Positions 12,096-60,404 of a stretch of DNA of 60,404 bases are shown piece after piece (the first letter of the stretch is position 1; each line of letters begins with the position of its first letter). Under the pieces are notes generated by a model. The model did no database searches, was not told the origin of the DNA, and saw nothing but the letters and a program-made list of their open reading frames with translations. This DNA is from a virus: positions 1-60,404 of IMG/VR virus record IMGVR_UViG_3300032144_000011, one strand, 5' to 3'. A program made the translations under genes and the position numbers.

Positions 12096-12318
12096 GTACC
12101 TGGAAAACCTGCATGACGTCACGGATGCATTCGACACGATACGCAACGACGCGGACGAAATGGAGCGCTTGACGAGTTCGCGTTCCTATGATGTCGCGCC
12201 GGTCCCGACCTGCCAGGCCATCCTGGCCTTGATCGCGCACTGCCGCAAGCAGACCGACCGCGTCGAGGCGGCGACGTCGCGCACGCTTGCTAGGAACCCG
12301 GAGCCGACCGATGCCTGA
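12088..12318 (+). CDS. Hypothetical protein (76 aa)
   Basis: Track ORF 12073..12318. ATG 12088 overlaps the upstream gene end. Confidence 0.55.
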
Positions 12319-12802
12319 GCCGATCAAGGGCGATGGGCGCTGCCCGAAATGCGCCAGCCGCAAGACCGCGCGCGCGGAACAGCCGGTCACCGCGTTCTAT
12401 AGCCGGACGCTCGAAGTCTGCGGCAATTGCGGCGCCGCCTGGGAGCCGATCGACCGGACGCTGATCTGGGACCCGGACGACCCTTACTGCTCCTTCAGCA
12501 AGCCCTGCGACAACTGCGCATTCCGGCCGGGCTCCGCCGAACAGCAGGATGTCGAGAAGTGGAAAGAAACCATTGCCTCGCTCAAGGCCGGCGGGCAGTT
12601 CTTTTGCCATAAGGGCGTGCCGCTCGACCTGACTCCGGAGGGTGACGGCTTTGCCTATCCGCGCGATGCCAAGGGGGACGTCATCGTGCGCAAGATGCGG
12701 CTCTGCCGCGGTTATCTCAACATGCTGAAACGCCTGTGGGACCGCGAGGCGAAGTCCGGCAGCGAGACCGCGATCCTCGCGGAGGAGACAGCGCGTGGGT
12801 GA
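12311..12802 (+). CDS. Cys-rich (multi zinc-finger-like) protein (163 aa)
   Basis: Track ORF 12287..12802 trimmed to ATG 12311. Motifs CPKC...CGNC...C...CDNC. Confidence 0.65.
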   Translation: MPEPIKGDGRCPKCASRKTARAEQPVTAFYSRTLEVCGNCGAAWEPIDRTLIWDPDDPYCSFSKPCDNCAFRPGSAEQQDVEKWKETIASLKAGGQFFCHKGVPLDLTPEGDGFAYPRDAKGDVIVRKMRLCRGYLNMLKRLWDREAKSGSETAILAEETARG

Positions 12803-18584: not shown

Positions 18585-19802
18585 ATGCCCGCTGACCACA
18601 TCACGTCCCGCTTCGTCGACGGACTCGCGCCCCGGGACAAGGAATACTGCGCCTGGGACGGCGCGCTGCGCGGCTTCCATGTGCGGGTATCGCCATCCGG
18701 CCGCAAGGTCTACGCGCTGCGCTTCCGGGCGCCGTCGGGCGTGCAGCGGCGCAAGAACATCGGCGACGCCGCAGTCACCAACGCCACCAAGGCGCGCGAG
18801 CGGGCGCGGGCGATGCTGGACGCGGTCGCCGGCGGCAAGGACCCGGTCGCCGCCCAGCGCCAGGCGCGCGCCCAGGCGCAGGCGGCGGGGACCTACAAGG
18901 ACGTGGTCGAGGACTTCATCGTCAAGTGGAGCGAGCCGCGCCAGCGCACCGCCGCCGAGACCAAGCGCGTGCTGCTGAAATCCGGCGCTTCCTGGCTCAA
19001 GCGGCCCTTCGCCGACATCACCGAGGCCGACGGCTACGCCGTGCTCGACGCCATCCTGGCCGAGGGCAAGCACGCCAAGGCGCGGGTCACGCTGACCTAC
19101 ATGCGCCAGCTCTGGCGCTGGGCGCACAAGCGCGGGCTCTGCGCCGCGCCCGTCATGGACCGGGTCGAGGTCGAGATCGAGCGCCGGGTCAAGGTCCGCC
19201 GCTACGACGACAAAGAAGTCCGCGCCGCCTGGGCGGTCGCCGAGACGCTGCCGGCGATCGAGGGCGCCTACATCAAACTCTGCATCCTGCTGGGGCCGCG
19301 CAAGAACGAGCTGGCGCAGGCCGAGCGCGCCGAGCTCGACGACCCGGCCAAGCCGACGCTCTGGACCGTGCCCTTCGAGCGCACCAAGTCGAAGAAGAAG
19401 GCCAAGCGCGAGCGCGTCTACCTAGTGCCCCTGCCGCCGCTGGCACAGCGCATCCTGCGCGGCCTGCCGGCGCGCATCGACGCGCCCGAGCTGCTGTTCC
19501 CCGGCTACCGCGCGAAACAGCCGCTCGACCCCGGCACCTGGCTGGCCAATAAGATCCGCGCCGCCAGCGGCATCGAGGACTGGACCTACCACACCTGCCG
19601 CGACACCATCGCGTCGTGGCTGCAGGACCAGGGCTACGACGAATACAGCCGCGGGCTGGTGCTGAACCATTCCGGCCCCGGCACGGTCACCGCCGACTAC
19701 AGCCACGGCTACGCGCTCGAGCTGAAGCGCAAGATGCTCGAGGAATGGGCCGCGCATGTGGCGGCCGTGGTCCGGGCGAAGGGGGTCGAGGTGCTGCGGT
19801 GA
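18585..19802 (+). CDS. int: Tyrosine integrase (DUF4102-type N-terminal arm-binding domain)
   Basis: Track ORF of 405 aa. N-terminus FVDGLAPRDKEYCAWDGALRGFHVRVSPSGRKVYALRFR. C-terminus HTCRDTIASWL...LNHSG...ADYSHGY gives the catalytic R-H-R-Y context. Confidence 0.9.
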   Translation: MPADHITSRFVDGLAPRDKEYCAWDGALRGFHVRVSPSGRKVYALRFRAPSGVQRRKNIGDAAVTNATKARERARAMLDAVAGGKDPVAAQRQARAQAQAAGTYKDVVEDFIVKWSEPRQRTAAETKRVLLKSGASWLKRPFADITEADGYAVLDAILAEGKHAKARVTLTYMRQLWRWAHKRGLCAAPVMDRVEVEIERRVKVRRYDDKEVRAAWAVAETLPAIEGAYIKLCILLGPRKNELAQAERAELDDPAKPTLWTVPFERTKSKKKAKRERVYLVPLPPLAQRILRGLPARIDAPELLFPGYRAKQPLDPGTWLANKIRAASGIEDWTYHTCRDTIASWLQDQGYDEYSRGLVLNHSGPGTVTADYSHGYALELKRKMLEEWAAHVAAVVRAKGVEVLR

Positions 19803-37949: not shown

Positions 37950-38001
37950 GCTATCCCAAGCCATGGCCGATAAGGGGCTGCCATACGAAGTCAGGGTCTA
38001 G
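37819..38001 (+). CDS. Opposite-strand small TM protein B (60 aa)
   Basis: Track ORF. GGAGGA lies 6 nt upstream of GTG 37819. TM LPFVGLYILLALLAGFFVMI. Its stop shares a CTAG with the convergent minus-gene stop. Confidence 0.55.
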   Translation: MYILALRASILLLKAIQLPFVGLYILLALLAGFFVMIEEWQEDKLSQAMADKGLPYEVRV

Positions 38002-40904
38002 GCAGCGCTCATGCGCAGGCGGATGCGCTTCGGCTGAAAGTCGAAATGCGCCACGCCTTCCTTGCCTTGCAGATACAAGCCGATGCAGGCGAGAATGCCG
38101 TGCGTCTGCTGGTTCGTGTACTCCGTCGAAGGAATATCGAACGAGCCGTTTCCCAGCCATTGCCGCATCGGCATGAAGCCGGGGTCAGGCTCGACCAGCT
38201 TGGCCGGCGCATCGTTCGTCGTCACCGCACCCTTCGGCCACGGCCAGTGCGCCCAGGTTACGCCCCCGTAAAGGAAGCTGAGCACCCACGACCGCCAGTG
38301 ATGCCATCCGTAGGCGCAGACGCCCTCCGGCGGGCGGCGGCCCATGGCCCTGGAGTCTTCGTGCAACAGGTTCTTCGGATTCTTGTAGCCGAGCCCATTC
38401 ATCAGGCAGTAGTTCGGAGGGTTATTGCCAAGCGCCAGCGCCGCACCAGCTTGGAGCACCTCGGCATAAAGGCTCGTGCCGGTGATCACATGAGCCCAGA
38501 CGAGGACCGTTGCTTCGGCCAGCGTAGGGCATGACCCAGTGCCGAACCCGCCATAGGCTTGGGTTGAAATGTGGCGCGTATTGATGAGCGCGATATCCGA
38601 ATTGCCCTTGCGCGATGCAATAAAGCCGTTGGCGGTGTTAATGATCGCGCTGCGCATTTGCGTTTGATAGGTCGCATTCACCCCGGCGTGGCCGACATTT
38701 GCATAGTCCCATTGCGTGGAGCCCGGCGTATGCCCGCCTCCGTTCCCGGCCAGCCCCCCATCCGAGCCGTCCCACCAGTCCTCGACCATGTCCTTGTAGG
38801 TCGAGTTGTCGATCAGCCGATAGAGCGAGGCCGCCGCAAAAACACGAGCGCCGCCGGATCGATTGCCCGGATTAACAAGATAGGACGATTGCGTGGCTTT
38901 GTAGGTTTCCCAGCTCGTGGCCGAGAACTCCCCCGCGCCATCGGCCAGCGTGATTTCTTCCGCCCACAAGGTGTCGAGATCGGCATAGACGGATTCGGCA
39001 TAATCGAACGCCGCGACCGCGCTGGTCTGATACGTTGCGGACAGCGTCAAGAAGCCTTCATCGGCCAGAACGCGCGCCAGATGCGCCGCAGCCGCAGCAT
39101 ACTGATAGGCCGTCAACGGGTCTTTATGCGAATAGGCGAAGGTGACTTGCCGTTCCTTCCAGGACGGCTCATGCGCCGCCGGAGTGTTGGCGGACTCGAT
39201 GCCGCCGATGACGGAGCCATCCTCGATTTGCGAACGCCGCCAGAAGTCGATGATGAACATCGCAATTTGAACGGCATCGGGAAGCGCGTCCGTCCCGGCA
39301 TAGGTGCCGTCCGTAACCAGCGTGGACATTTTCGGGACATTGAAATCGCTGCCGTTCGCAGCCGAACCGACGATCTCGTGAACACTGAGGAAGAACCGCG
39401 CAAGGTTAAGGTGCTGCGTGCGGCGGTCATGATCCCCCGCGTCATGCGTACCACCCCAATAGGGAACCTCGGTCGCTGTAATCCAGGGAGACGCCGCGCC
39501 GTTGTTGAACGTGACGAACCCGCCGCCCTCTGTGCTCCACGACAGTGGTAATTTGCTTTGCAGCAAGGTCAGCGTCCCGCCCTCGCTGACGGGCCGATGG
39601 CACATCGGGCGTTCGTAGCCGAACCGATCGTCCAGCGCGACGCCGCAATAATGCGCCACGACCCCGCGCATCCCATAATCCGCAAGCCTCGCCCACACCG
39701 CCGTGTCGATGCGGAACAGAGGCGTCACGCCAAATCCGGGCAGCCAGATGCGGTAGTCGCCCGGCGGCAGGGTGATTGCCCCGATATCGACATTGTAGAC
39801 ATCGGTTCCGACCGTATTGCGATAGAATGTGTCATGAACAAAGCCGCCACTCGTATATGTGCCAAAACTCGTCGTGTTAACACCGAACGAGAATGTCGTC
39901 TCGTCGATGACGGTAATGGCGTCTGAAGTAACCTGACGCCGGAAGCTGTTGGCGCTGTCCATGCCGAGAATATTCGTCAGGTATTTCTTCTCGTCCGTCG
40001 AAAACCCATGCGGGCCGTCTGTCGTAACAACTCCAGGGTTGGCCTTTGTAATTGCGGTGATTGCTATTTTGTTGTTGAGGCTTGCGACCCTGTTCTGGTC
40101 GTCATTGAAGAGATCGCTATAAGTTTCTAGCGTATCCCCCGCTATTCTGAATTCCGCCGTGATCTCGTGCTGAACGGCGCCGTTCTTGTCGATGAGATAG
40201 AACGCCCCCGTCCACGCATTGTAGATCGTCGGATCGAACATCCCTTCCCGGCCATCGCCATTGTCGTAACCGGGAAGCCATTGGTGATACGTCGCGTGCT
40301 TCCGCTCGTCGTCAAGGCCGTAGCCGTTTTGATTGATATGGATGCCGGGGCAGATCGTGGTCTTTTCGTTAAGCGTGAACTCGTGATCCGCGGGGACGGC
40401 GTATTTCCCGCTGCCGATCAGGTCGGGCCATGGAATCGTATAGGTGCCGTCCGCGAGAACGCCGCTCAGATGCAGATAGACGTAGTGCTCGACACGGTAA
40501 ATCTGCGTTTCTTCCGAGCCGTTCCGGGTAAAGCCCTGATCCTCGAACAGCATCCGGTAATAGACATTGGTGACCGTCAGCCCGCCAATGGTGCCGTAAC
40601 CGGCCACATTCAGGATTGCTTCCCGGTCGAGATAATCCGGCGTCGCGGAATCCATCGTGCGGAACGTCAGCTTGTCGGGGGCGACCAGGAACCCGTTCAC
40701 GCCATCGATCACGGTCCATGTGTTGTAGGCCGCCGTGGACATATCGGCGAGCGTGCCGGTCGTCGCCCCCTGCGCCCACTCCTGAGACGACGGATAGGCT
40801 GTCGCGAGATTTACCAGCCCGCCATGCGTGATCTCGCCATCGAGAATGATTGCCAAAAGAATGTCTGGGGCAACGCGCTGGATCTCGGAGACGGTGACGG
40901 TCAT
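37998..40904 (-). CDS. Large virion-module protein with GH9-like (alpha/alpha)6 endoglucanase domain
   Basis: Track ORF of 968 aa. YWGGTHDAGDHDRR resembles the GH9 GGW.DAGD.K catalytic-Asp motif. A C-terminal ...STEYTNQQT... stretch is in the position of the GH9 catalytic-Glu motif. The N-terminal ~400 aa are beta-rich. Confidence 0.75.
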   Translation of the reverse strand: MTVTVSEIQRVAPDILLAIILDGEITHGGLVNLATAYPSSQEWAQGATTGTLADMSTAAYNTWTVIDGVNGFLVAPDKLTFRTMDSATPDYLDREAILNVAGYGTIGGLTVTNVYYRMLFEDQGFTRNGSEETQIYRVEHYVYLHLSGVLADGTYTIPWPDLIGSGKYAVPADHEFTLNEKTTICPGIHINQNGYGLDDERKHATYHQWLPGYDNGDGREGMFDPTIYNAWTGAFYLIDKNGAVQHEITAEFRIAGDTLETYSDLFNDDQNRVASLNNKIAITAITKANPGVVTTDGPHGFSTDEKKYLTNILGMDSANSFRRQVTSDAITVIDETTFSFGVNTTSFGTYTSGGFVHDTFYRNTVGTDVYNVDIGAITLPPGDYRIWLPGFGVTPLFRIDTAVWARLADYGMRGVVAHYCGVALDDRFGYERPMCHRPVSEGGTLTLLQSKLPLSWSTEGGGFVTFNNGAASPWITATEVPYWGGTHDAGDHDRRTQHLNLARFFLSVHEIVGSAANGSDFNVPKMSTLVTDGTYAGTDALPDAVQIAMFIIDFWRRSQIEDGSVIGGIESANTPAAHEPSWKERQVTFAYSHKDPLTAYQYAAAAAHLARVLADEGFLTLSATYQTSAVAAFDYAESVYADLDTLWAEEITLADGAGEFSATSWETYKATQSSYLVNPGNRSGGARVFAAASLYRLIDNSTYKDMVEDWWDGSDGGLAGNGGGHTPGSTQWDYANVGHAGVNATYQTQMRSAIINTANGFIASRKGNSDIALINTRHISTQAYGGFGTGSCPTLAEATVLVWAHVITGTSLYAEVLQAGAALALGNNPPNYCLMNGLGYKNPKNLLHEDSRAMGRRPPEGVCAYGWHHWRSWVLSFLYGGVTWAHWPWPKGAVTTNDAPAKLVEPDPGFMPMRQWLGNGSFDIPSTEYTNQQTHGILACIGLYLQGKEGVAHFDFQPKRIRLRMSAA

Positions 40905-42577
40905 CAGTCGCTCGGGCTATTCGGCGCGGCCGAAAGAGTCCCGGTCAGCGTCCCGCCCGAAACCGAGCCGGCATTAGTATGCCAAGATGCTGCTGCCTTG
41001 TTGTGGCAGAATTTAACTTGCGCCCCGGTCGGCCCGGAACCATCCGTCAATAGATCGACAGGCTTCCCGGCCGCATCGATGAATTTGCGCCGGTTCGCCT
41101 CGACTGTGATGTCCATTCTGGCGGTCGGGTCAAACCAAAGTTCGGCCACATAGGCAACCAATTTATTCGTGGCGCTGTTATCGCAGCCCACAAAAAGCGA
41201 TGCCATCGTGTAGTCAATATTTCCGCTTGCCAAGGTGTTAGTCGTCAAATTGGCTGAGTAATCCGCATCATTCACGTACACCGATATTCCGGCGGCCGTG
41301 TTCCACGATAGCTGTAAATTAAACCATGTATCGACGGGGCAACTCGACACGGTCGCGGATATCTTCGTCACGTTCGAAGCGTCTCGCGCGAAAATCCCAA
41401 CGACACCAGAAGTGTTGTTTACATAAATAACGAAGCGATTGTTGGTCGTGGTCGAGATATCAAATATGCCGTATATGCCGGATGATGGCCATGTCGGCAA
41501 GCGCAGCCAGATCGAAAAAGTGCCTACCGCCGCGTCAGCAAGAGAGGCGCTCACATCCCCGTAAGCGATATGCTGGCTACCGGTAAAATTAACGGCGTTC
41601 GCTACATACCCCGCCGCCGCCACCTCCAGCGTGAACGTCGCCAGGTCGTCGGTGCTGCCCTCGTCGTCCGTCACCCTTACCGACAGGCTGGCGAAGCTGC
41701 CGCTTTCCGTGGGCGTGCCCGAGACGACGCCGGTCCCGGAGTCGATGCTGATGCCCGCAGGCCAAGTGCCTTGCAGCGAGAAAACGTAAGGCGTAACGCC
41801 GCCTGTAGCGGACGCGGTGAACCCGGCGTAGGCCGTGTCTTCCGTGGCGGTCAGCACAGGCGTGCCGGAGATGGCGAGAGCGGCGTTGACAGTGAAGGCG
41901 TAGCTTTGCAGCTCGGTGAAGGTGCCGTCGTCGCGCCAGACGTAGCCCCTGACCGTGTGCGCGCCCAAGGCGAGCGCGCTGAGCGTCACCGGGCAGCTTG
42001 CCAGCGTGGCGGTCGTCAGGTCGGCAGTGCCGAGCACCGTGCCATCGGCGGCGATCACCGCGGCATGGTCGCCGGCCAGCACCGTGGCGCCCGACAGGTC
42101 GAGCACAACGTCCGGCGTGGTGTCCGAGGTCTGGTTGCCGACGCCGACCGACAGCGCGACCGGGCCCAGGCTCTGGTTCATCGTGTAGGGCACGGCGTTC
42201 GAGTGGGGGCTCTCGCCGCCGGCGTTGACGTGGGTCATGGTGATCATCCACGCGCCCGCCGGGATCGCATCGAAGGTGCCAGCCGGGACCGCGCCGCCCG
42301 ACAGCATTTCCGAGGTAAGCACGAAACTGTCGTGCAGCGTCGCCCCGGCCGTGTCGCCCGCGTCGAGATAGACGCGGACGGTCTCGCCCGCCTGGGCGGC
42401 GTCGTCGAAATCCGCCGCCATCTGCGGGAACGGGTCGTTGCTGAGATGATCGCCCGAGGTGCTGCCAAGGTCCGAGGCCGGCAGCAGCGTGAGGATCGGC
42501 GCGAGCGGGGCCGACGGCGGCTCGGCCGCCGGCGACGCCACGAAGCCGAGCCGCGTGCGATCGCGCGGGAAAATCAT
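40904..42577 (-). CDS. Ig-like repeat plus LamG (concanavalin-type lectin) domain protein
   Basis: Track ORF of 557 aa. A...GGVTPYVFSL.GTWPAGISIDSGTGVVSGTPTESGSF is the putative-Ig (dystroglycan/cadherin-like) motif. The C-terminal FSIWLRL...VYVND... stretch is LamG-like. Confidence 0.75.
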   Translation of the reverse strand: MIFPRDRTRLGFVASPAAEPPSAPLAPILTLLPASDLGSTSGDHLSNDPFPQMAADFDDAAQAGETVRVYLDAGDTAGATLHDSFVLTSEMLSGGAVPAGTFDAIPAGAWMITMTHVNAGGESPHSNAVPYTMNQSLGPVALSVGVGNQTSDTTPDVVLDLSGATVLAGDHAAVIAADGTVLGTADLTTATLASCPVTLSALALGAHTVRGYVWRDDGTFTELQSYAFTVNAALAISGTPVLTATEDTAYAGFTASATGGVTPYVFSLQGTWPAGISIDSGTGVVSGTPTESGSFASLSVRVTDDEGSTDDLATFTLEVAAAGYVANAVNFTGSQHIAYGDVSASLADAAVGTFSIWLRLPTWPSSGIYGIFDISTTTNNRFVIYVNNTSGVVGIFARDASNVTKISATVSSCPVDTWFNLQLSWNTAAGISVYVNDADYSANLTTNTLASGNIDYTMASLFVGCDNSATNKLVAYVAELWFDPTARMDITVEANRRKFIDAAGKPVDLLTDGSGPTGAQVKFCHNKAAASWHTNAGSVSGGTLTGTLSAAPNSPSD

Positions 42578-43068
42578 CAGCCGGGATATCCCGTCAGGTC
42601 GACGCGGAAGGTCTCCTCGCTCGCCGGGGTGAAGACGCTGCGCGTCTCCAGCAGGCCGTAGATCGTCGCGGCCTCGAAGGGGATGTCGCAGTTGGCCCAG
42701 CCGACGGCGTCGTCGGAGCCGGCGGCCGTCACATCGACGTCGACGAAGCCGATGCAGTTCGCCAGCGGCTTGACGAAGGCGGCGTTATCCCCGGCGCCGG
42801 GCACCAGCGATGCCTTGAACAGCCAGACCCGGATGGTCGGCGTGGCGACCGCCTGGTTGCTCTTGCGCACCTTGACGCGACGGATCGTGCCGGCGCCCCA
42901 GTAGGCCGCCCACTGCAGCAGGGTCACCGAGCCGGCCGTGGCATTGTCGGCGATGGCATCGCCGATGTCGTAGGGCGTCGTGTTGCCGAGCCGGTTGAAG
43001 CTGTTGACGACCGGAGTGAGCTCGCGCGTCAGCGGGCCGACCACGGGACTGGATCCGTCAGCGGACAT
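42577..43068 (-). CDS. Hypothetical structural protein (163 aa)
   Basis: Track ORF. ATGA-type coupling with the downstream gene. Confidence 0.65.
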   Translation of the reverse strand: MSADGSSPVVGPLTRELTPVVNSFNRLGNTTPYDIGDAIADNATAGSVTLLQWAAYWGAGTIRRVKVRKSNQAVATPTIRVWLFKASLVPGAGDNAAFVKPLANCIGFVDVDVTAAGSDDAVGWANCDIPFEAATIYGLLETRSVFTPASEETFRVDLTGYPG

Positions 43069-43080
43069 GGGCGTTTCCTT

Positions 43081-43515
43081 TTAAAGCAGGCCGACGACGA
43101 GCGATGCGGCCGGGAAGCGGATGACGTCGCCGTCGCCGGCCGTCTTCGGCGTGGTCAGCGGGCCATGGAACAGCGGATTGCCGCCGCCCACGGTCGAGCC
43201 GCTGTGCGTGATGGCGTCGTGGATCTTCATGGCGACCGCCTCCGACCATGCGCCGCCGTCGGCCGCCTCGAAGGCCCATTCCTGGTCGTTGTCGGTGAAG
43301 CCGCCCGCCGCGACCGCGAAGGTGCGGCCCGTGGCGTGCTCGATCTCCAGCCGGGCATAGGCGAAGGTGGCGGCCAGCTCGGTGCCGCCGGTGCTGTCGT
43401 TGGTCGGCGTAGAGTAGAGCGCCAGGCCCAGCGTCGTCGGCGGGGTGTAGTCCGCGTCCTTCAGCACATGGTCGAGCAGCTCGGACGCGAGGAAATCGGC
43501 GAGATTGTTGGCCAT
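43081..43515 (-). CDS. Hypothetical structural protein (144 aa)
   Basis: Track ORF. The N-terminal MANNLADFLASELLDHVLKDADYTPPTTLGLALYS pattern is a recurrent uncharacterised phage family (recollection). Confidence 0.65.
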   Translation of the reverse strand: MANNLADFLASELLDHVLKDADYTPPTTLGLALYSTPTNDSTGGTELAATFAYARLEIEHATGRTFAVAAGGFTDNDQEWAFEAADGGAWSEAVAMKIHDAITHSGSTVGGGNPLFHGPLTTPKTAGDGDVIRFPAASLVVGLL

Positions 43516-43857
43516 TTAACGGACCCTCCGAAGCGGCTTGTGAGCGTTGGGGCGGCGGCCGTGCATCATGCCGTCCTCGACCGGACACCAGGTGCCGCAC
43601 TTGACGCACTCGATGCGCCGGATGACGCAGGCGCCCTTGTGCTGGCCGAGCAGCGGGGAGACGATGACCTTGAAGCCGACGAAATTGCAGTTCGGGCAGC
43701 TTGCCGGCAGGCGTTCCAGGTGCGGCAGGAACAGCGACGTCGCCAGCTTGAGCGTGGGCGGCGCCTTCTCGACGGCGGCGGCGGGGTCGGGCGCCTGGAC
43801 GGCAGCCACCAGCGTCCCGGCCGGGCGCAGCCTGGCGCCGGTGTCATGGATGGTCAT
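43516..43857 (-). CDS. Zinc-ribbon protein (113 aa)
   Basis: Track ORF. CPNC...C...CVKC. ATGA overlap with the upstream gene. Confidence 0.5.
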   Translation of the reverse strand: MTIHDTGARLRPAGTLVAAVQAPDPAAAVEKAPPTLKLATSLFLPHLERLPASCPNCNFVGFKVIVSPLLGQHKGACVIRRIECVKCGTWCPVEDGMMHGRRPNAHKPLRRVR

Positions 43858-44183
43858 GGCGCCTGCCGCAGCCGCAGGGCGAGCACGACGCCACCCTCGG
43901 AATCGGGCCGCACGTCGGTAACGGCAAACTCCGTGCCGCGGATGTCGACCCGGTCGCCCGGGGCGACGGCGCCCACGGCGTCGCGGCGGCAGGCCACGCT
44001 GATCTGGTAGTCCGAGATCGCCACGTTGCCGTCGCCGATCAGCTCGTAGTAGCGCGCGTCGAACACGCCCTCGACCTCGACCGCCGCGTCGCCCGCGCGC
44101 GTCAGCGTGAAGCTCTCGCCGAAGACCGAATTGATGGCGTCGGTCAGGCCGTCGAAGAGCGCTAGACCCGTAGGCTGCGGCAT
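43854..44183 (-). CDS. Head-tail connector / head completion protein
   Basis: Track ORF 43854..44258 trimmed to ATG 44181-44183. FDGLTDAINSVFGESFTL...VEGVFDARYYEL...GDRVDIRGTEFAVTDVRPDSEGGVVLAL matches the head-tail joining pattern. Confidence 0.7.
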   Translation of the reverse strand: MPQPTGLALFDGLTDAINSVFGESFTLTRAGDAAVEVEGVFDARYYELIGDGNVAISDYQISVACRRDAVGAVAPGDRVDIRGTEFAVTDVRPDSEGGVVLALRLRQAP

Positions 44184-45181
44184 TCGAACACTGTCTCCTT
44201 GGCGTCCGCGTGGGACTCCTGCACGATCGGGAAGACCACGCCGAGCTGCCGCCGCCACCAGTGGGCGCTGCGGCGCACGACGATGTCGGCGCCCGCCGTG
44301 CGGACGCGCACCCGGATCTCGGCCTTGCGGGCCAGGTCGGTGATCGCGTGCGCGACCTCCATGGGGTTGGCGCGCAACTCGAGCCCGGTCACTTCCTCGA
44401 GCTTCGGGTCCGGGGCGGGCCGCTCGACAATGACCGGCGCCTCTTCCGCCTCAGCCGCCGGCGCGGGAGCGGCGGCTTCCGCCGGCGCTTCCGGCTCATG
44501 GTCCGGGGCGGCCTCGGGCTCGTCTACCCGGTGATCCTGCTCGAAAACGGCTCTGCGTGGCGTCCTGGCCAAGACTTCCTCCAACGTGGTTTTCGGGAAA
44601 CAGTTCAGCGCGGAGCCCGGATAGCAGTTGAGCACGGTCACCCCGTGCTGCTGCAGCGGCGCCGCCATGCGCGCGATCGCCGGCATGAAGCGCTGCTCGT
44701 AGGCTTTGTCCTTGACGGCGCGGCGCGGCCGGCCGTCCCAGTTCTCGCCCTTCATGTCGAAGCCGAGCAGGACGATCGGGTCGCAGCCGAACAGGAAGGC
44801 GAGGTTGAGGCTGTTGCCGCCGGAGCAGACGCCGCCCAGCTTCGTCGGGTCGGTCGACAGCCCCATCTTCTGATCGCTGATCAGCACCTTGACGTCGTGG
44901 CCCTGGGCCCGGCTCACCGGGCCGCGCGTGACCTTGAACGGCCCCTTGTGCAGATGCAGCCGCGGGCCGTTCGCCGGGTGCTTGCTGTCGCCGTCGCACC
45001 AGAACTTGTCCGCCCAGTAGAGCACGTCCGCCCAGGGCGCCATCGTCAGCCCGGCTTCCTTGATGGCGATGACCCGCCCGCGGCCGCGCAGGACCGCCGC
45101 GTCGAAGCCCCGGAGCGAGGATCCGCCGCCGATGATGAAACAGGGCTGCCCGGCCCAGAGGCGCGGCACGGACCAGGTCAT
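44162..45181 (-). CDS. DUF115/Maf-like (MptE-like) putative glycosyltransferase with Pro/Ala/Glu linker and C-terminal domain
   Basis: Track ORF of 339 aa. PCFIIGGGSSLRGFD...VIAIKEAG...ADVLYWADKFW and GGNSLNLAFLFGCDPIVLLGFDM follow the DUF115 pattern. Confidence 0.7.
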   Translation of the reverse strand: MTWSVPRLWAGQPCFIIGGGSSLRGFDAAVLRGRGRVIAIKEAGLTMAPWADVLYWADKFWCDGDSKHPANGPRLHLHKGPFKVTRGPVSRAQGHDVKVLISDQKMGLSTDPTKLGGVCSGGNSLNLAFLFGCDPIVLLGFDMKGENWDGRPRRAVKDKAYEQRFMPAIARMAAPLQQHGVTVLNCYPGSALNCFPKTTLEEVLARTPRRAVFEQDHRVDEPEAAPDHEPEAPAEAAAPAPAAEAEEAPVIVERPAPDPKLEEVTGLELRANPMEVAHAITDLARKAEIRVRVRTAGADIVVRRSAHWWRRQLGVVFPIVQESHADAKETVFECRSLRV

Positions 45182-45960
45182 TCAAGGATGCGCCACATCG
45201 TGCCGTCGATCATCTCGCGCTCGTCGAACTGGCAGTAGGCCAGCGCGGCCAGCCACGGCGCGCGGTCGGGATAGACGGGCGTCTCGATCAGCGACAGATC
45301 GGTCAGCCCCACATGCCGCGCAGCGGAAACGGGATCGACGAACACCGGCACGCCCATCACCGCGGCCTCGACGGCGGCGATCGAGCCGTGCGTCACCAGC
45401 GCGTGCGCGCCGCGCAGCGCCTGGTCCAGCGGGACCGGGTCGTATTTGCGCCGCACGACGACCGCGCGATCCGTCAAGTCCTTGAGGATCTCCAGCGTCG
45501 CGTCGAGCCAACCCTCGATGCCGTGAAACCGCGCGTAGGTATCGGTCGGCGCGGCGACGACGATATGGCTGCCCGCCGCCCGCCAGGGGCGGACCGGCAG
45601 CATCAGCTTTTGCAGCCGGTCGGGCGGCCGGGGCCGCAGCGTCTCCATCTGCCAGGCCGACCGGTGCCAACGCCAGTAGCCGTGCCCGGGGTCCTGGCCG
45701 AGCCCCGCCGCCGCCATCCGCCCGCGCCGGAGATAGCCGCGGTCGATGTAGAGGAAGGGGCGCCCCGCCGCCGCCCACGCCGCGAAGAGCGGGCGCATCT
45801 CGGGGAAGCATTCCGACGCCGGGATCAGGTCCGTCTGCGCCATCGCTTCGACCCGGCGGACGATGCGCCCCATGCGCGCGCCCACCTGGTCGAACAGGCG
45901 GCGCTTCTGCCCCTTCCGCGCCTGCGGGACGTAAAGCGCGACCGACTGCGGATCGATCAT
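45178..45960 (-). CDS. Putative glycosyltransferase (GT-B C-terminal-like)
   Basis: Track ORF 45178..46161 trimmed to ATG 45958-45960. ATGA overlaps at both ends. ...ALVTHGSIAAVEAAVMGVPVFV... resembles GT-B/capsule-synthesis enzymes. Weak assignment. Confidence 0.55.
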   Translation of the reverse strand: MIDPQSVALYVPQARKGQKRRLFDQVGARMGRIVRRVEAMAQTDLIPASECFPEMRPLFAAWAAAGRPFLYIDRGYLRRGRMAAAGLGQDPGHGYWRWHRSAWQMETLRPRPPDRLQKLMLPVRPWRAAGSHIVVAAPTDTYARFHGIEGWLDATLEILKDLTDRAVVVRRKYDPVPLDQALRGAHALVTHGSIAAVEAAVMGVPVFVDPVSAARHVGLTDLSLIETPVYPDRAPWLAALAYCQFDEREMIDGTMWRILE

Positions 45961-46544
45961 CCGCCTACGCGCCGCTGCCAGACCGTGCGGTGCCCCTTGT
46001 GGCCCGAGGTCGGGCCGATGTCCGGCAGCGCCGTGAAGTGGCCGCCCAGCGTGTGCCGGCCGAGGGTTCCGGCGCGGATGTCGAGGATCAGGCGGCCGCC
46101 CGGACGGAGGATGCGGCGCGCCAGCGGCAGATAGGTCTCCACCGGGTAGTGCCAGCCCCACGACAGCAGGCTGACGATGTTGTCGACCGGCGGGATGTCG
46201 GCCGCGCCGATCGGCCAGGGCTTGTAGCGCGCCACGCCGTTGAGGCGCATCATCTCCGCCGTCAGGTGCATGTCGTTGAAGGCGTCCATGTCCGGCCCGA
46301 AGCCGGTGCGCCGGTCGGCCCAGCCGGTGCCGTCCATCAGGTGCAGCATGCCGCCGCAGTGATGCGCGATCAGCGCGGACATGCCGCCGAGGCCGCAGCC
46401 GATGTCGAGCGCGTCGCCCGGCACGAGCCGGTCGCGCAGCAGGGCGAACTCGCCCTCGATCGCCGCGACGTAGCCGTCGGCGCTGGCGACCTCGCTACGC
46501 TGCTGGCGCAGGTAGCGGTCGATGCCGTCAGGCAGGACGAGCAA
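45957..46544 (-). CDS. Class I SAM-dependent methyltransferase
   Basis: Track ORF 45957..46802 trimmed to TTG 46542-46544 behind GGAGGG. Motif I ALDIGCGLGGMS, then LRPGGRLILD. Confidence 0.7.
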   Translation of the reverse strand: MLVLPDGIDRYLRQQRSEVASADGYVAAIEGEFALLRDRLVPGDALDIGCGLGGMSALIAHHCGGMLHLMDGTGWADRRTGFGPDMDAFNDMHLTAEMMRLNGVARYKPWPIGAADIPPVDNIVSLLSWGWHYPVETYLPLARRILRPGGRLILDIRAGTLGRHTLGGHFTALPDIGPTSGHKGHRTVWQRRVGG

Positions 46545-47325
46545 GCAATCCCTCCGCCGATTCCAGAACCTGCGCCGCCGTGATCTTCGCCATGGCGTCC
46601 CGGCAGTGATCGCACGGCTGCAGCGAGCCGCAGGCCGCGCCGCCGGTGAAGATGTTGACGTGGCCGTCGTAGCCGGTCGTCTTCGGATGGATGAAGCCGC
46701 CGAACAGCACGACCGCCGGGATGTTGACCGCCGCCGCCGCGTGGTGCAGCCCGCCCTCGGGGCCGATGTAGAGCGCCGCACTGGCCAGCAGGGCGGCGGC
46801 ATGGCGGAAGGTCGGCGTCGCCATCGGCCGTGCGCCGCGCACCGGCAGCGTCGTCTCGACCGGCCGCTGGAACTGCCGCACGTCGCGGCCGGCCTCCTGC
46901 AGCGCCGCGGCGACCTCGGACCAGCCGTGCCATTTCTTGTTCATCGACTGGCCCTTCGGCGGAAGGTAGCCGTCGACGATGACGAAGCCCGTCCCGAAGG
47001 CCGAAGCCCACGACCGCTCGGCCTCGTCGAAGAAGAATTCCCCCCGGGGCGGCCGGAAGCTCGCGTCGAACACGAAGCGCCGGCCGGCCTTGTGATCCGC
47101 CTTGGTGCCCTTCACGTAGCCGCGGCTGCCGCTGTAGTAGCGCCGCCACTCCAGGTCCTTCGCCCCTTCCGATCCCGGCGGGGCGACGTTCGGGTTGTTG
47201 CGGTAGATCTCCGCGCAATGCGGGCCCCAGATAATGCGCCGGCCGTCGCCGAAGGCCGTGCGCCTGCCGCGCGCTGCGGCGCCCCGCGCCATGCCGGAGC
47301 CCATGATCTCGTCGCCGATCCCCAC
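46528..47325 (-). CDS. Glycosyltransferase family 9 (heptosyltransferase-like)
   Basis: Track ORF 46528..47865 trimmed to GTG 47323-47325. GIGDEIMGSGMARG and LYIGPEGGLHHAAAAVNIPAVVLFGG match GT9 N- and C-terminal motifs. Confidence 0.7.
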   Translation of the reverse strand: MGIGDEIMGSGMARGAAARGRRTAFGDGRRIIWGPHCAEIYRNNPNVAPPGSEGAKDLEWRRYYSGSRGYVKGTKADHKAGRRFVFDASFRPPRGEFFFDEAERSWASAFGTGFVIVDGYLPPKGQSMNKKWHGWSEVAAALQEAGRDVRQFQRPVETTLPVRGARPMATPTFRHAAALLASAALYIGPEGGLHHAAAAVNIPAVVLFGGFIHPKTTGYDGHVNIFTGGAACGSLQPCDHCRDAMAKITAAQVLESAEGLLARPA

Positions 47326-47327
47326 GC

Positions 47328-48026
47328 TCAGGCGGCAGCCCAGCGGTGCAGCACCGCCCGCCACTCGTCGGCGAACTCGGCCTGCTCGAAGCCGGCGAAC
47401 CAGGGGCCCCCTAATGTGAAATGGGCAATCTTGGCGGCCGGGTCGGGCGGGTATTCGCCGATCAGGTGATTCCAGGCCTTCGGCAGCTCGCCGAGCTGCT
47501 CGTCCTTGAGCCAGCAGAAGCGGTGCAGGTCGCGGCCGGGCAGGGAGTTGACCAGGTCGACCGTCAGCTCGGCGTTGGCCGGATGCCCGCAGTTGAACAG
47601 CATCAGGCTCGACCAGTTCTTGCAGGCGTAGAGCTGCTGCGCCTGGCCGTCCATCTTCTCGCCCTCGGCCGGGGCGTAGTCGTGCTGGACGCACATCACG
47701 GCCTTGCTGTCGTCGCGGAGCGCGAACAGCTCGGCCATGGGCGCGCGCACCAGCATGTCGCAGTCCATGAACAACGCCCAGCCTCGGTAGCCGCAGAGAT
47801 AAGGCACCAGGAAGCGGCTGATGGCGAATTGCGTGGCGCAGTAGGCGCCGGAAATGTCGTCCCACATCCGGCCCAGCTTGGTCCGCGTCGGCCGGCGGTA
47901 GAGCCCGCGCGCGCGCAGGTCGTCCAGCACCAGCCCGTGCACCGGCACGCCGGGGTCGAGATGGCGCCAGAGCGACGCGCGCGTGACGGCGAACGCCGCC
48001 GCCTCGCGCGGGTCGAAGCCGATCAT
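47328..48026 (-). CDS. Glycosyltransferase family 8-like (DxD)
   Basis: Track ORF 47328..48083 trimmed to ATG 48024-48026. ALFMDCDMLV (DxD), NWSSLMLFNCGH, WNHL, IAHFTLGGPWF follow the GT8 pattern. Confidence 0.75.
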   Translation of the reverse strand: MIGFDPREAAAFAVTRASLWRHLDPGVPVHGLVLDDLRARGLYRRPTRTKLGRMWDDISGAYCATQFAISRFLVPYLCGYRGWALFMDCDMLVRAPMAELFALRDDSKAVMCVQHDYAPAEGEKMDGQAQQLYACKNWSSLMLFNCGHPANAELTVDLVNSLPGRDLHRFCWLKDEQLGELPKAWNHLIGEYPPDPAAKIAHFTLGGPWFAGFEQAEFADEWRAVLHRWAAA

Positions 48027-48508
48027 CACTTGCACGGAAGATGCCTCCAGGTGCGACCGGAACGAATATTCGTGATCGCGCACCGCGTGACGCCGAAGTC
48101 GGCAGCCACGAGAGGCGCAGGCCGCGTATCTTTCCGAATCTTCAGTACTTGCGCCGCAGTGAGCTTACCCATGCGGGCGCTCTCACCGCATGGACCGGCA
48201 TGTGCCCGTCGACCCTTCTCGGTCATGTCGGACATGTTGTCGTACTGCGTTCCGAGGAAGAGATGATCCGGATTGACGCAGGAACGGACATCGCACTTAT
48301 GCAAGACCTGTAGTCCTTCGGGAATCGGCCCGAAATGGATTGTCCAAGACCAGCGATGCGCATATCCCTCGCCGTAAAGCCGCCGAGAACACACGCCATA
48401 TCCGTGATGATAGAGGGCGCGTGTCCACAGCCAGCAACCGCTATTAGGTTCCGGGATATATCGATGATCGAATGGAATTCGTCGCGCCGATTGATCATAC
48501 CAAACCAT
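48026..48508 (-). CDS. HNH homing endonuclease
   Basis: Track ORF 48026..48646 trimmed to ATG 48506-48508. GCWLW...GYG...HRWSW...VLHKCDVRSCVNPDHLFLGTQYDNMSDM is the HNH_3 pattern. Visibly AT-richer than its neighbours. Confidence 0.8.
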   Translation of the reverse strand: MVWYDQSARRIPFDHRYIPEPNSGCWLWTRALYHHGYGVCSRRLYGEGYAHRWSWTIHFGPIPEGLQVLHKCDVRSCVNPDHLFLGTQYDNMSDMTEKGRRAHAGPCGESARMGKLTAAQVLKIRKDTRPAPLVAADFGVTRCAITNIRSGRTWRHLPCK

Positions 48509-48527: not shown

Positions 48528-49544
48528 CTAGTTGCTGGTCGTCGCCCGCAGCAGCATCTCGGGACGGGTGCAGATGTGGAGCGGGTAGGAATACTGCTCC
48601 GTCCGCACCCACTGGTTCCGGTGCAGATCGCGGACGATCTGGCCATAGACCGGCCGGCCCGGCGTGTTGACGAAGTCGAAGGACTCGGCCGGGCTGTAGG
48701 CGACCTTGAAGACGCCCGGCGCGTTGACCGGGAAGAACTTCGCCTTGCCGGTCGCGACCGCGATGGTCGTGCCGTCGTCCGTCCCGCGGTAATTGTGCCA
48801 CATGATGCCGCCGAACGGGAACGACCGGAAGGCGAGGTTCTGCCGCAGCTCCTGCGCGGCCGCCCAGTTGAGATAGGTGTCGCGCACCAGCGCGTGGTTG
48901 ATCAGCTTGTCGTAGAACGAGTCCTCGGCCAGCGCATGGACTTCCGTCGCCGGCGTCCAGGCGCCCTTCGACGCCACCTGCATCGCGCGGGTGATCGCGT
49001 GGCACTTGCCGCGGATGTCGGTCGTCGCCGTGCCGAGCACGAAGTCGACCTCAGCCGCCTGGGCGATGCTCCACTCGGTGAACCAGTTGCGGATGGTCGA
49101 ACCGTCGGCGTCGAGCACGATGCCCTGGATGGCGCCAAAGCGCATGTTCTCGTGCGTCAGCTCGATGTCCGTGCGGATGCGCATGTTGCGCCGGGCCACC
49201 TCGGCCTGCACGCCCATCATCTCCGATTCCGTGCCGAAGGCGCGGATGCCCTGGATCTCGTGGGCGTAGAGCGTGTCGCCCTTGGCGATGCGCACGGTGT
49301 TGAAATTGCGGACGTCGCGCTTCTCGACGGTCCACTCGTCCAGCGGCGCGCCGCGCTGCGACGTTTGGATCAGCGACAGCACGCTCTCGCGCTTCTCGAT
49401 CGAGATATGCGTCGTCGAGACGGGCACCGGCTCGAAAATGCCGAGAGAGCCCAGGAACTGCGGCACGTAGGGCGTCTTTTCCACCGCCCCGGTCATCGAC
49501 ACCATGTTGAAGGCGTCGTCGTTGAAGATGTCCATGTGGGCCAT
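48528..49544 (-). CDS. Major capsid protein, lambda gpE family
   Basis: Track ORF of 338 aa. MDIFNDDAFNMVSMTGAVEKTPYVPQFLGSLGIFE...IEKRESVLSLIQTSQRGAP... matches the Phage_cap_E pattern. Confidence 0.9.
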   Translation of the reverse strand: MAHMDIFNDDAFNMVSMTGAVEKTPYVPQFLGSLGIFEPVPVSTTHISIEKRESVLSLIQTSQRGAPLDEWTVEKRDVRNFNTVRIAKGDTLYAHEIQGIRAFGTESEMMGVQAEVARRNMRIRTDIELTHENMRFGAIQGIVLDADGSTIRNWFTEWSIAQAAEVDFVLGTATTDIRGKCHAITRAMQVASKGAWTPATEVHALAEDSFYDKLINHALVRDTYLNWAAAQELRQNLAFRSFPFGGIMWHNYRGTDDGTTIAVATGKAKFFPVNAPGVFKVAYSPAESFDFVNTPGRPVYGQIVRDLHRNQWVRTEQYSYPLHICTRPEMLLRATTSN

Positions 49545-49609: not shown

Positions 49610-50008
49610 TCAGCGGACGATGATCTTGAGCTCGGCCAGTGCCGCGTTGATGAGCGTCTTGCCCGTCTCCGCCGTGTTGTCGCCGGACGGATAGGTCAGC
49701 TCGCTGCCGTTCACCTCGGCGTCGCGGGCGATGTAGACGCAGCCGGCGACGTCCGCGCCGGCGTGCGGGCCGGCGGTCGAGGCGTCGACGTTGTCCCACA
49801 TGATGCCCTCGGGGGCCGTGATCAGCGCGGTGGCGGCGGTGTTCGTCAGAATGTCCTTCGCCACCAGCTTGCCGGCCGAGAGCTGGACGACCTGGCCGGC
49901 GACGAGATTCTGCCCGGCTGCGACGATGCCGGTCTTGCGCGAGCGCGTGCCGTTGGCCTCGGAGACGAGGAACTCGGCCGCGTGCTTGCCTTCGGTGAGT
50001 ACGGTCAT
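49610..50008 (-). CDS. Head decoration protein (gpD-like)
   Basis: Track ORF of 132 aa, immediately upstream of the gpE-type capsid gene. Confidence 0.75.
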   Translation of the reverse strand: MTVLTEGKHAAEFLVSEANGTRSRKTGIVAAGQNLVAGQVVQLSAGKLVAKDILTNTAATALITAPEGIMWDNVDASTAGPHAGADVAGCVYIARDAEVNGSELTYPSGDNTAETGKTLINAALAELKIIVR

Positions 50009-59523: not shown

Positions 59524-60404
59524 TCAGGTGCGGATTTCGGGTTTCGGGAAAGCGCGCTTGTCGAAGCCGTAGGTCCAGGCGTTCGCCTCAAGCGCGGTCT
59601 TCATCGTCGGCGGCACAGGAAGGGCGAATTTTCGGCCCGTGCCGCAGAGAACCCGGAGAAAGCGCTCGCGGCCCACATCCGGGATATCGACCTCGACCAG
59701 CTCGCCGATCATCGGATCGCTGTCGGTGTCGATCGTTCTGGCATTCAGCTCGGTCAGGATGCGCGCCCAGCCCACAAGCTCGCAGGCGACGCGGCGCTGT
59801 TCGATGTTGCTCCAGGTGAGCGCCGTCTTCGGCGTGAGCGATTCCTTGCGCTCAATCCATTCGGCCGGCACGCGGACACCGTTCACGGCATAGATCGCCC
59901 AGCCGTCCGGATAGGCGACTGCGGGACCGGCGACGGAATGCAACCGCCCGGCCGCGTTCCGCTGCAGCACGTGATGCCGCTCCGAAACCCAGCAGATATG
60001 CTCGTGCGGCAGCGCCCATCCTCCCGAGCGCGCGAGAAGCCACAGCCCCCGCAGCCGCTCGGTCTCGGCTCCAAGGCCGCAGGTCTCATGAAAAAAATCG
60101 AAAAAGCCCAACCAGGATGCGTCGTGCTGTCCGTAGACGCTGGCCCAGACGCTGGCCCAGACGCTGTCCCAGACGCTGGCCCCGACGCTGTCCCGGACGC
60201 TGGCCCGGACGCTGTCCCAGACGCTGGCCCGGACGCTGTCCCGGACGCTGGCCCCGACGCTGGCCCCGACGCTGGCCCCGACGCTGGCCCGGACGCTGTC
60301 CCGGACGCTGTCCCAGACGCTGGCCCCGACGCTGTCCCCGACGCTGTCCCGGACGCTGGCCCGGACGCTGTCCCAGACGCTGGCCCGGACGCTGTCCCGG
60401 ACGC
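59524..60404 (-). CDS. C-terminal fragment of DUF6745-like tetrapeptide-repeat protein (enters from the right edge)
   Basis: Track ORF 59524..60111 is open upstream. The same frame reads ...SVWDSVWASVWASVYGQHDASW(L)GFFDFFHE... through the 12-bp repeats to position 60404 without a stop. Confidence 0.8.
   Translation of the reverse strand, partial: VRDSVRASVWDSVRASVRDSVGDSVGASVWDSVRDSVRASVGASVGASVGASVRDSVRASVWDSVRASVRDSVGASVWDSVWASVWASVYGQHDASWLGFFDFFHETCGLGAETERLRGLWLLARSGGWALPHEHICWVSERHHVLQRNAAGRLHSVAGPAVAYPDGWAIYAVNGVRVPAEWIERKESLTPKTALTWSNIEQRRVACELVGWARILTELNARTIDTDSDPMIGELVEVDIPDVGRERFLRVLCGTGRKFALPVPPTMKTALEANAWTYGFDKRAFPKPEIRT
60136..60404 (-). repeat. 12-bp tandem repeat array, right-edge part
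   Basis: About 22 units of GACGCT(GG/GT)CCC(A/C/G), plus one degenerate unit at 60124-60135. Same unit and phase as 1-184. Confidence 0.95.

Follow-up and report, generated by a model that had tools for sequence, protein, structure and literature searches.

The IMG/VR virus record IMGVR_UViG_3300032144_000011, analyzed here over its whole length of 60,404 nucleotides (the window), carries five co-directional enzyme genes, g1 to g5, at 44162-48026 on the minus strand, lodged between the gene for the major capsid protein gpE, followed by an HNH insert, and the gene for an FII-type head-tail attachment protein. On balance, we favor the interpretation that this cassette glycosylates one or more virion proteins in the cytoplasm late in infection. 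A preliminary description of the same DNA had named the cluster a candidate virion glycosylation system, and that candidacy is supported by the embedding of such cassettes in the head and neck modules of several phage lineages, by the fusion of a Maf-like enzyme domain to FII, and by the precedent of mycobacteriophage Corndog. The cluster and its surroundings are laid out as follows (GC3 is the G+C content at third codon positions):

48528-49544, minus strand: gpE, major capsid protein (PF03864, 5e-85; GC3 0.95), which bounds the cluster upstream and is a candidate acceptor
48026-48508, minus strand: HNH homing endonuclease between gpE and g1 (PF13392, 7e-16; GC3 0.60), foreign and outside the cassette
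47328-48026, minus strand: g1, GT8-like retaining GT-A glycosyltransferase, 232 amino acids (phrog_28018, 6e-57)
46528-47325, minus strand: g2, compact GT9 (heptosyltransferase family) glycosyltransferase, 265 amino acids, GTG start, alternative start at 47364 (PF01075)
45957-46544, minus strand: g3, class I S-adenosylmethionine (SAM)-dependent methyltransferase, 195 amino acids, TTG start (sub-threshold Pfam methyltransferase matches)
45178-45960, minus strand: g4, glycosyltransferase with a GT-B fold, 260 amino acids, of a family without a Pfam model (weak DUF6716 match only)
44162-45181, minus strand: g5, Maf/sialyltransferase-like domain (PF01973 superfamily) with a linker and a C-domain (phrog_4603, 1e-24)
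43854-44183, minus strand: FII-type head-tail attachment protein (PF05354, 1e-15; phrog_82, 'head closure Hc1'), the downstream boundary

The genes are tightly packed, and the junctions, re-derived from the sequence, all came out as originally described. The HNH gene and g1 overlap by one nucleotide (TGATG); a gap of 2 nucleotides separates g1 from the GTG start of g2; g2 and g3 overlap by 17 nucleotides, g3 beginning with TTG; the g3/g4 and g4/g5 junctions are ATGA each; and g5 overlaps the FII gene by 22 nucleotides. The same phage was also assembled independently, from another sequencing run; there an automatic gene finder gives identical calls for g3, g4, g5 and FII, and a g2 that starts 39 nucleotides further upstream at GTG 47364 (278 amino acids), which turns the g1/g2 gap into an overlap. 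The Joint Genome Institute (JGI) gene call for g1 is 235 amino acids long. These alternative starts leave the tight packing unaffected. Because the GC3 of g1 to g5 (0.91-0.95) matches that of gpE and gpD (0.94-0.95) and that of the HNH gene (0.60) differs, g1 to g5 are real genes and long-term residents of the genome, and the HNH gene is a recent homing insertion. In two relatives (L004 and L007) a g1 homologue comes directly after gpE, the HNH gene being missing at this position, and each of g1 to g5 has many homologues. A scan of the cluster with the sigma-70 consensus, which is poorly suited to DNA of about 70% GC, found no sigma-70-like promoter and no credible terminator inside it. No hydrophobic segment was found in g1 to g5 (the maximum Kyte-Doolittle mean over 19 residues is below 1.6), and all five proteins are predicted to be soluble, with no membrane-spanning segment.

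The preliminary description had seen in g5 a DUF115/Maf-like protein with a Pro/Ala/Glu linker and an extra C-terminal domain, a picture that held up well. The protein is laid out as a catalytic domain (residues 1-210), a disordered linker of Pro, Ala and Glu (211-255) and a small alpha/beta C-domain (262-335). PF01973 is matched by 86 of the 105 aligned homologues, and the family motifs in common with Maf include GGGxSL and the invariant residues D52 and D142. Searches of the PDB with the single sequences of g1 and g5 found nothing, and the g5 family profile brought up an insignificant match to MptE only; because PDB sequence searches with g1, g5 and g4 were uninformative, a comparison of folds was needed. 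With the g5 model (predicted local distance difference test score, pLDDT, 88.6; linker below 55), Foldseek puts the Maf structure 5MU5 at the top (8e-5), followed by MptE (8sd5), CstII, PmST, ST6GalNAc2 and ST8Sia3; these include a sialyltransferase from Pasteurella and others from humans. Among the five proteins, g5 is the only one whose characterized structural relatives include a direct protein O-glycosyltransferase. Its C-domain aligns with the C-terminal half of the methyltransferase domain in two DUF115-methyltransferase fusion proteins (P0019 and P0024), and looks like a vestigial remnant of a class I methyltransferase.

For g4, earlier called GT-B-like, the AlphaFold model (pLDDT 91.9) shows a two-Rossmann, GT-B-like fold. 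The top 11 Foldseek matches in the PDB are all KpsC or WbbB, with E-values from 4e-5 to 1.6e-3, a probability near 1 and TM-scores of 0.38-0.52, the best E-values being 4e-5 for KpsC and 6e-4 for WbbB. Matches in BFVD include gp128 of Caulobacter phage CcrColossus and the 'capsule polysaccharide biosynthesis' proteins of Tetraselmis virus 1. The family profile of g4 found no relevant match among PDB sequences, and no sequence similarity to PF05159, KpsC or WbbB was detected. We therefore describe g4 as resembling, in its modeled fold, the retaining beta-Kdo (3-deoxy-D-manno-octulosonic acid) transferases KpsC and WbbB, and assign it no membership in their families. More than 320 homologues are known at about 50% identity, all unnamed, and D73, R74, H186, H191 and E198 are invariant in the family.

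The first enzyme, g1, was rightly taken as GT8-like. Its DxD motif reads FMDCDM, with D88 and D90 invariant among 23 homologues, and its C-terminal motif HFTLGGPW (HFTxGxPW in the family) has H202, G206 and P208 invariant. The family comprises more than 8000 homologues at about 60% identity, of which some match PF01501 and some carry the JGI name 'LPS biosynthesis glycosyltransferase' (LPS, lipopolysaccharide). In the PDB, the family profile picks out the WbbM GT8 domain (5e-4), with glycogenin and a streptococcal GT8 protein next, and the DxD of g1 aligns to the DxD region of the WbbM domain and of glycogenin. The g1 sequence itself has no Pfam match at E <= 0.1, and hence does not reach the gathering score of PF01501; we call it 'GT8-like' and do not count it as a formal GT8 member. 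It is probably a transferase of hexose from uridine diphosphate (UDP)-hexose.

The second enzyme, g2, proved to be heptosyltransferase-like as proposed, scoring 33.3 bits against PF01075, for which the cut-off is 22. The alignment is restricted to the C-terminal half, residues 126-228 of a protein of 265-278 amino acids aligning with profile positions 115-229 of 247, and g2 is about 80 residues shorter than canonical heptosyltransferases (about 320-350). Weak matches were obtained to NCBIfam models of the RfaQ, WaaC, WaaF and TibC types and, in the PDB, to WaaF and TibC. In g3, motif I reads DIGCGLGG, with G49 and G51 invariant; 29 of 60 homologues match Methyltransf_23, the family profile finds methyltransferases only in the PDB (best 2e-6), and the family has 1079 cluster representatives, all of which agrees with the class I SAM methyltransferase first proposed. 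In sum, profile searches and fold comparisons bore out the enzyme assignments of the preliminary description, with refinements.

Where are such genes found elsewhere? The relatives with lambda-type heads (L004, L005, L007 and L014) keep the order gpE, cassette, FII, one further gene and Gp80, with varying cassette content: g1, g2, extra methyltransferases, g4 and g5 in L004 and L007; a GT8 gene, an unknown gene, a g3-like methyltransferase and g5 in L005; two unknown genes and g5 in L014. In all four g5 is present and adjoins FII. In another contig (L027) g5 is followed by GT4, GT2 and GT-D-like genes, and sometimes the Maf-like gene stands alone beside a capsid gene. In these gene orders g5 is the constant member of the cassette. 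Judged by gpE, the closest phages in culture are Synechococcus phage Yong-M2-251 and Aurantimonas phage AmM-1; since both lack the cassette, it is an accessory addition to the head module.

A wider survey of gene neighborhoods, of the kind that the preliminary description had called for, finds the cassette almost always lodged in the head and neck modules of phages, unrelated ones included. Relatives of g5 occur in at least 523 IMG/VR contigs. Genes were called in 80 fetched loci and labeled with a small reference set; among the 51 distinct loci, 39 have a head gene within six genes upstream of the g5 relative, a lower bound given the crude labeling, and a count of non-independent events, many of the surveyed loci being related to one another. 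Pfam searches on 125 neighbors, drawn from the three genes upstream of g5 relatives, gave about 23 portal, about 23 capsid and about 18 prohead protease proteins, together with 5 cement and 5 connector proteins and, unexpectedly, 11 collagen-repeat proteins. The 119 neighbors from the four genes downstream are methyltransferases and glycosyltransferases (GT2, GT1-like, GT9, GT-D, DUF6716), then head-completion and tail-tube proteins. The cassette-bearing head types fall into separate Pfam families, namely lambda gpE/portal_2, HK97 Phage_capsid/Phage_portal, Mu gpT/portal_3 and Phage_capsid_4, and because of this the same kind of position has been occupied repeatedly, in at least four unrelated kinds of head module.

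A second survey, anchored on g4, covered 180 viral contigs with a g4 relative and gave a consensus order: Maf, GT8, GT9, class I methyltransferase, Methyltransf_24 (of the sugar O-methyltransferase type), an unknown protein of about 215 residues, sometimes an NAD-dependent epimerase, and the KpsC-like protein. This cassette either separates the capsid gene from the portal gene or follows the portal gene and a collagen-like gene, and it precedes the head-completion gene. GT9 and GT8 each occur in 30 of the 37 distinct loci, and Methyltransf_24 in 31. No g3 homologue was detectable in these cassettes, the likeness of g3 to their methyltransferase being confined to motif I. The five genes of the window are therefore a compact, re-ordered form of this recurrent module.

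Further carriers of the module include cultured Caulobacter phages and a rhizobial prophage. In CcrColossus (L001:8833-13386), gp126 to gp131 are homologues of g5, (an unknown), g4, g1, a methyltransferase and GT9, most of them annotated as hypothetical, and relatives of this phage likewise carry all five homologue types side by side; other Caulobacter phages with the full set of five are CcrSC, CcrBL9, CcrPW and Bertelyvirus. Full-text searches found these genes without mention in the phiCbK-group genomics paper and the Caulobacter phage literature. A nine-gene version lies between the capsid region and the head closure gene of 'Tetraselmis viridis virus S20' (L002). That record was deposited as an algal virus; its genome, however, is that of a typical siphophage, with terminase, portal, protease and tape measure genes, and the true host is probably an alga-associated bacterium. 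In a Sinorhizobium fredii prophage, on contig AJQP01000090 of assembly GCA_000261905.1, the cassette lies between a gp6-like connector and a head completion gene, and adds a PMM-like HAD phosphatase or mutase and a cytidylyltransferase (L012:10723-11861); another cassette includes an NAD-dependent epimerase (L105:7342-8004). These additions suggest that the supply of sugar donors is sometimes phage-encoded.

A further link to the virion is an open reading frame (ORF) of about 500 codons that joins a Maf-like domain, an FII (Phage_attach) domain and an HCP-like region:

L017:9986-11491, with L018 at the same coordinates (IMG/VR): Maf-FII fusion ORF
L180:922-2424 (P0015, a JGI contig): Maf-FII fusion ORF

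From end to end, one version shares 73% identity with the other. Because versions so divergent occur in different samples, the fusion, which ties the enzyme to a virion assembly protein, is a maintained one and no assembly artefact. A second link is a collagen-like gene that lies between the portal and Maf-like genes in about 20 loci, the S. fredii prophage included, for example:

L054:7138-8166: collagen-like protein
L058:1797-2951: collagen-like protein
L012:7760-8752: collagen-like protein
L130:2878-3717: collagen-like protein

The protein has an N-terminal coiled coil, G-X-Y repeats (GKDG/GxP) and a conserved CBM5/12-like C-terminus ending in KRGRDGK, and may be a head fibre and also the acceptor of the glycan in those lineages. 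These neighbors are rich in GKD/GxP triplets and lack BclA-like GxT triplets, so that they offer no obvious O-glycosylation repeat. No collagen-like ORF was found in the window.

How would such a cassette work? As we envisage it, the genes would be co-transcribed and co-translated with those for head proteins late in infection, and the acceptor would be at least one protein of the virion, whether of the capsid, decoration, head-completion or fibre kind, modified before or during head assembly. The glycan would be started by g5 on Ser or Thr residues of the acceptor, from an ulosonic acid (a nonulosonic acid or Kdo) activated with cytidine monophosphate (CMP). We propose g5 as the initiator because it is the invariant member, sometimes stands alone by a capsid gene, and has as its best structural relative an enzyme that glycosylates protein directly. 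The KpsC-like g4, the GT9-type g2 and the GT8-like g1 would extend the glycan with Kdo-, heptose- and hexose-type sugars, and g3 would cap it by methylating a sugar. The donors, CMP-Kdo or CMP-nonulosonate, adenosine diphosphate (ADP)-heptose, UDP-hexose and SAM, would be drawn from standing pools of the Gram-negative host; perhaps the cassette of the window has no sugar-biosynthesis genes because its predicted donors are such pools, a speculation from family resemblance. The phage might gain shielding, stability or adhesion.

A fuller form of this model is put forward tentatively, as a possibility to which we would give clearly less weight than to virion glycosylation as such. In it, Maf-like O-glycosylation of a head, neck or fibre protein is extended to a methylated, LPS-inner-core-like glycan made entirely from host precursor pools, and the virion would emerge from the cell with a coat of sugar resembling the host core. 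The system would be widespread in phages of Gram-negative, especially alphaproteobacterial, hosts, with a collagen-like acceptor in many lineages and, in one, the enzyme tethered to the head-tail attachment protein.

Several points, however, weigh against glycosylation of the virion by this cassette. The argument for function is guilt by association throughout. The LPS core is classically built by GT9, GT8 and Kdo-transferase-like enzymes, and the CstII-type relatives of g5 act on lipooligosaccharide. By its own sequence g5 falls below PF01973 detection at E <= 0.1, and it lacks Maf's flanking domains; the link of g4 to Kdo transferases is one of fold (TM-score 0.44-0.55), with no support at the sequence level. 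A comparison of gpE between cassette-bearing and cassette-less phages showed no C-terminal extension or Ser/Thr-rich insert, and the relatedness of the surveyed loci tempers their counts, as noted above. The CcrColossus block follows large tail proteins and precedes lysis genes, away from the head genes, and in the T4-like Pelagibacter phage Mosig a related cluster (L179:6833-12667) is surrounded by early and nucleotide-metabolism genes; it comprises two methyltransferase genes, a GT8-like and a g4-like gene, one gene for a sulfotransferase and one for a further glycosyltransferase.

The kinds of enzyme would also fit late remodeling of the host envelope, the main rival and a serious one, which we nevertheless consider unlikely. 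Here the lipid A-core or a capsule primer would be modified at the cytoplasmic face of the inner membrane, with g4, g2 and g1 adding Kdo, heptose and hexose, g5 a sialic-acid-like cap and g3 a methyl group, and the receptor would be altered on the dying cell, its debris or its vesicles, which would keep progeny from being lost there. LPS core and capsule are assembled by enzymes of these families: the GT9 protein is nearest to the RfaQ, WaaC and WaaF models, homologues of g1 are named for LPS biosynthesis, the fold of g4 is nearest to KpsC and WbbB, and lipooligosaccharide sialyltransferases of the CstII type are among the fold matches of g5. Modification at the level of the core would require no flippase, and the Mosig cluster shows that a related set can lie outside the structural genes. 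It is difficult, however, to see why genes for envelope remodeling would be kept within the head/neck operons of at least four head types, and not at the att (attachment site)-proximal or module-boundary sites of morons, why a Maf-like domain would be fused to FII, or why the cassette would so frequently adjoin a collagen-like structural protein. Moreover, late-operon genes would presumably be silent in lysogens, no internal promoter having been found here, and LPS made minutes before lysis is unable to replace the receptors of the outer membrane.

Considerably less probable is a target that is neither virion nor envelope: the bases of phage DNA, a host protein (flagellin or pilin, for instance), or an oligosaccharide that is free or secreted. 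Some viruses are known to encode glycosyltransferases for the hypermodification of DNA (cited in a passage of PMC12619734), and the characterized Maf relatives of g5, identified by fold, act on flagellin. DNA glycosyltransferases normally sit with replication genes, however, and no hydroxymethylase, thymidylate-synthase-like or other base-hypermodification gene was found among the early genes of the window; DNA hypermodification was rejected on the absence of hydroxymethylase-type genes. None of these targets would explain the position in the head module or the fusion to FII. Least probable of all, in our view, is that g5 is an MptE-like pyrophosphokinase or other nucleotide-dependent enzyme and the cluster a mixed metabolic moron in a head operon, since, even though PF01973 is named for the 6-hydroxymethylpterin diphosphokinase MptE and MptE is the second-best fold match of g5 and its sole, weak, sequence-profile match, the best fold match is the Maf glycosyltransferase with six sialyltransferases next, the g5 relatives have glycosyltransferases and sugar-type methyltransferases as consistent neighbors, and pterin-pathway genes are absent nearby.

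Returning to virion glycosylation, the genome around the cassette offers further possible acceptors. The window is a high-GC contig (about 68% GC), and because both of its ends carry the same 12-nucleotide tandem repeat, inside an ORF (3-184, about 15 copies; 60136-60404, about 22 copies), it is probably a complete circular phage genome broken within a 4-residue protein repeat. Among its genes are those for a tyrosine integrase (18585-19802) and for a GapR-like protein. GapR-like DNA-binding proteins are typical of alphaproteobacteria and their phages. The genes point to a temperate phage of an alphaproteobacterium, a host suggested because of GapR and of the rhizobial and Caulobacter relatives; a profile scan of genome contigs with the g5 alignment gave three metagenome-assembled loci that were uninformative on the host, and neither a tRNA nor an att site was found in the window. 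Its early region (7724-8952 and 11547-13901) holds genes for a D12 N6-adenine DNA methylase, DUF1937, the GapR-like DNA-binding protein and DUF5131, and further early genes encode a HerA-like ATPase, an SNF2 helicase, DnaJ and the integrase. The late operon runs, on the minus strand, from a gpA-type terminase through a gpW-size ORF, a lambda-type portal, an S49 protease, a scaffold, gpD, gpE and the HNH gene to the five enzyme genes and the FII-type gene. Five extra genes (37998-43515, minus strand) then separate FII from the gpU-like and tail-tube genes. Further features of the operon are:

49610-50008, minus strand: gpD (PF02924)
within 37998-43515, minus strand: ORF of 113 residues, the first of the extra genes after FII
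43081-43515, minus strand: Gp80-like 'podophage GP4 fiber I' protein
within 37998-43515, minus strand: ORF of 163 residues among the extra genes
within 37998-43515, minus strand: He_PIG Ig-domain protein of 557 residues, lower in GC
within 37998-43515, minus strand: protein of 968 residues with GH9 glycoside hydrolase and E1_FCCH domains, lower in GC

The genes of the He_PIG and GH9 proteins (GC 58-62%, GC3 0.74-0.78) are clearly below their neighbors in these measures, and relative L004 shows a matching arrangement after FII, with LamG and GH9. The extra genes have the look of a head or neck fibre that was acquired recently and is equipped with a polysaccharide-degrading domain, and their proteins are also candidates for glycosylation.

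If the cassette does glycosylate virions, then glycosylated virions would be common among phages of Proteobacteria, given that the cassette occurs in hundreds of contigs from the environment, in prophages of rhizobia and in jumbo phages of Caulobacter, and their chemistry would differ, Maf-like and Kdo-transferase-like enzymes acting on proteins. Two large unannotated families (that of g4 and that of g1, phrog_28018) would receive a function, and glycoengineering in Escherichia coli would gain new enzymes for protein glycosylation that draw on sugar-nucleotide pools universal to Gram-negative bacteria. There would also be a bearing on phage stability, on adsorption, on immune recognition in phage therapy, and on soil and aquatic ecology. 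Since cultured carriers exist on the genetically tractable Caulobacter crescentus CB15, the question is directly testable.

To our knowledge, only a few actinobacteriophages have been shown to glycosylate their virions with enzymes that they encode, and in them antibody recognition is dampened. Full-text phrase searches of the literature found no report of glycosylated virions or capsids in phages of Gram-negative bacteria, in keeping with the earlier remark that no such system had been described for lambda-like alphaproteobacterial phages. That remark had also pointed to glycosylated capsid and tail proteins of a few actinobacteriophages, and here the precedent fits. Glycosylation cassettes of mycobacteriophages Corndog (gp35-gp38), Che8 and Myrna are known to us through passages of PMC4351075, PMC11600133 and PMC12363180, and that of Corndog is the closest precedent, a likeness in architecture without homology. 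In both phages an O-methyltransferase or methyltransferase and glycosyltransferases are embedded in the operon of virion structural genes, the O-methyltransferase and three glycosyltransferases of Corndog lying between the genes for portal and protease. The proteins gp35-gp38 were detected in infected cells and are absent from virions, and capsid and tail-tube proteins are reportedly modified by these enzymes, with a weakening of neutralizing antibody responses (Freeman 2023, as cited in passages of PMC11600133 and PMC12363180). The Corndog proteins have no sequence similarity to g1 to g5, however (none at E <= 10 by phmmer; best blastp E 0.09), and the window differs in its families (Maf-like, KpsC-like, GT9 and GT8-like), in its Gram-negative host and in the position between gpE and FII. 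Modification has been reported for Corndog and is predicted for the window.

The individual enzymes have their closest counterparts in other systems. The Maf protein of Magnetospirillum (5MU5, PF01973) is the best fold match of g5 and shares motifs with it, and both would be soluble cytoplasmic enzymes. The whole of Maf is 632 residues long, however, as against about 210 for the catalytic domain of g5, which has a disordered linker and a domain resembling a methyltransferase remnant in place of the flanking domains, and whose gene lies beside capsid and connector genes and not flagellar genes. The LPS and capsule enzymes (WaaC/WaaF/WaaQ of GT9; RfaI/RfaJ/LgtC of GT8; KpsC/WbbB of GT107/GT99) match g2, g1 and g4 in family or fold, and their predicted donors, ADP-heptose, UDP-hexose and CMP-Kdo, are host pools. 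The genes of the window, in contrast, lie in a phage head operon with no LPS or capsule neighbors, and g2 is the shorter protein by the margin given above. The TibC/AAH heptosyltransferases are GT9-type enzymes that glycosylate proteins in the cytoplasm, and TIGR04414 and the TibC structure are among the weak matches of g2; at 18.6 bits against a cut-off of 200, however, g2 is no member of that family.

Two further systems involve sugar-modifying genes of viruses. The glycans of Vp54 in PBCV-1 are built by viral cytoplasmic glycosyltransferases, a methyltransferase domain included. In chloroviruses and giant viruses, then, soluble virus-encoded glycosyltransferases and a sugar methyltransferase decorate the major capsid protein, and folds like that of g4 occur in Tetraselmis virus 1; these are viruses of eukaryotes, however, and their capsids and enzymes are unrelated to those of the window. 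The gtrABC/oac genes for O-antigen conversion are likewise sugar-modifying genes encoded by temperate phages of Gram-negative hosts. They are, however, att-proximal, expressed in the lysogen and specify membrane proteins, whereas the products of g1 to g5 are predicted to be soluble, having no hydrophobic segments, and their genes lie inside the late head operon, about 25 kilobases from the integrase gene, a contrast that the preliminary description had drawn for position and expression and that stands. Phage-encoded virion glycosylation is itself known from the mycobacteriophages; what would be new in the window is a different enzyme set and a different group of hosts.

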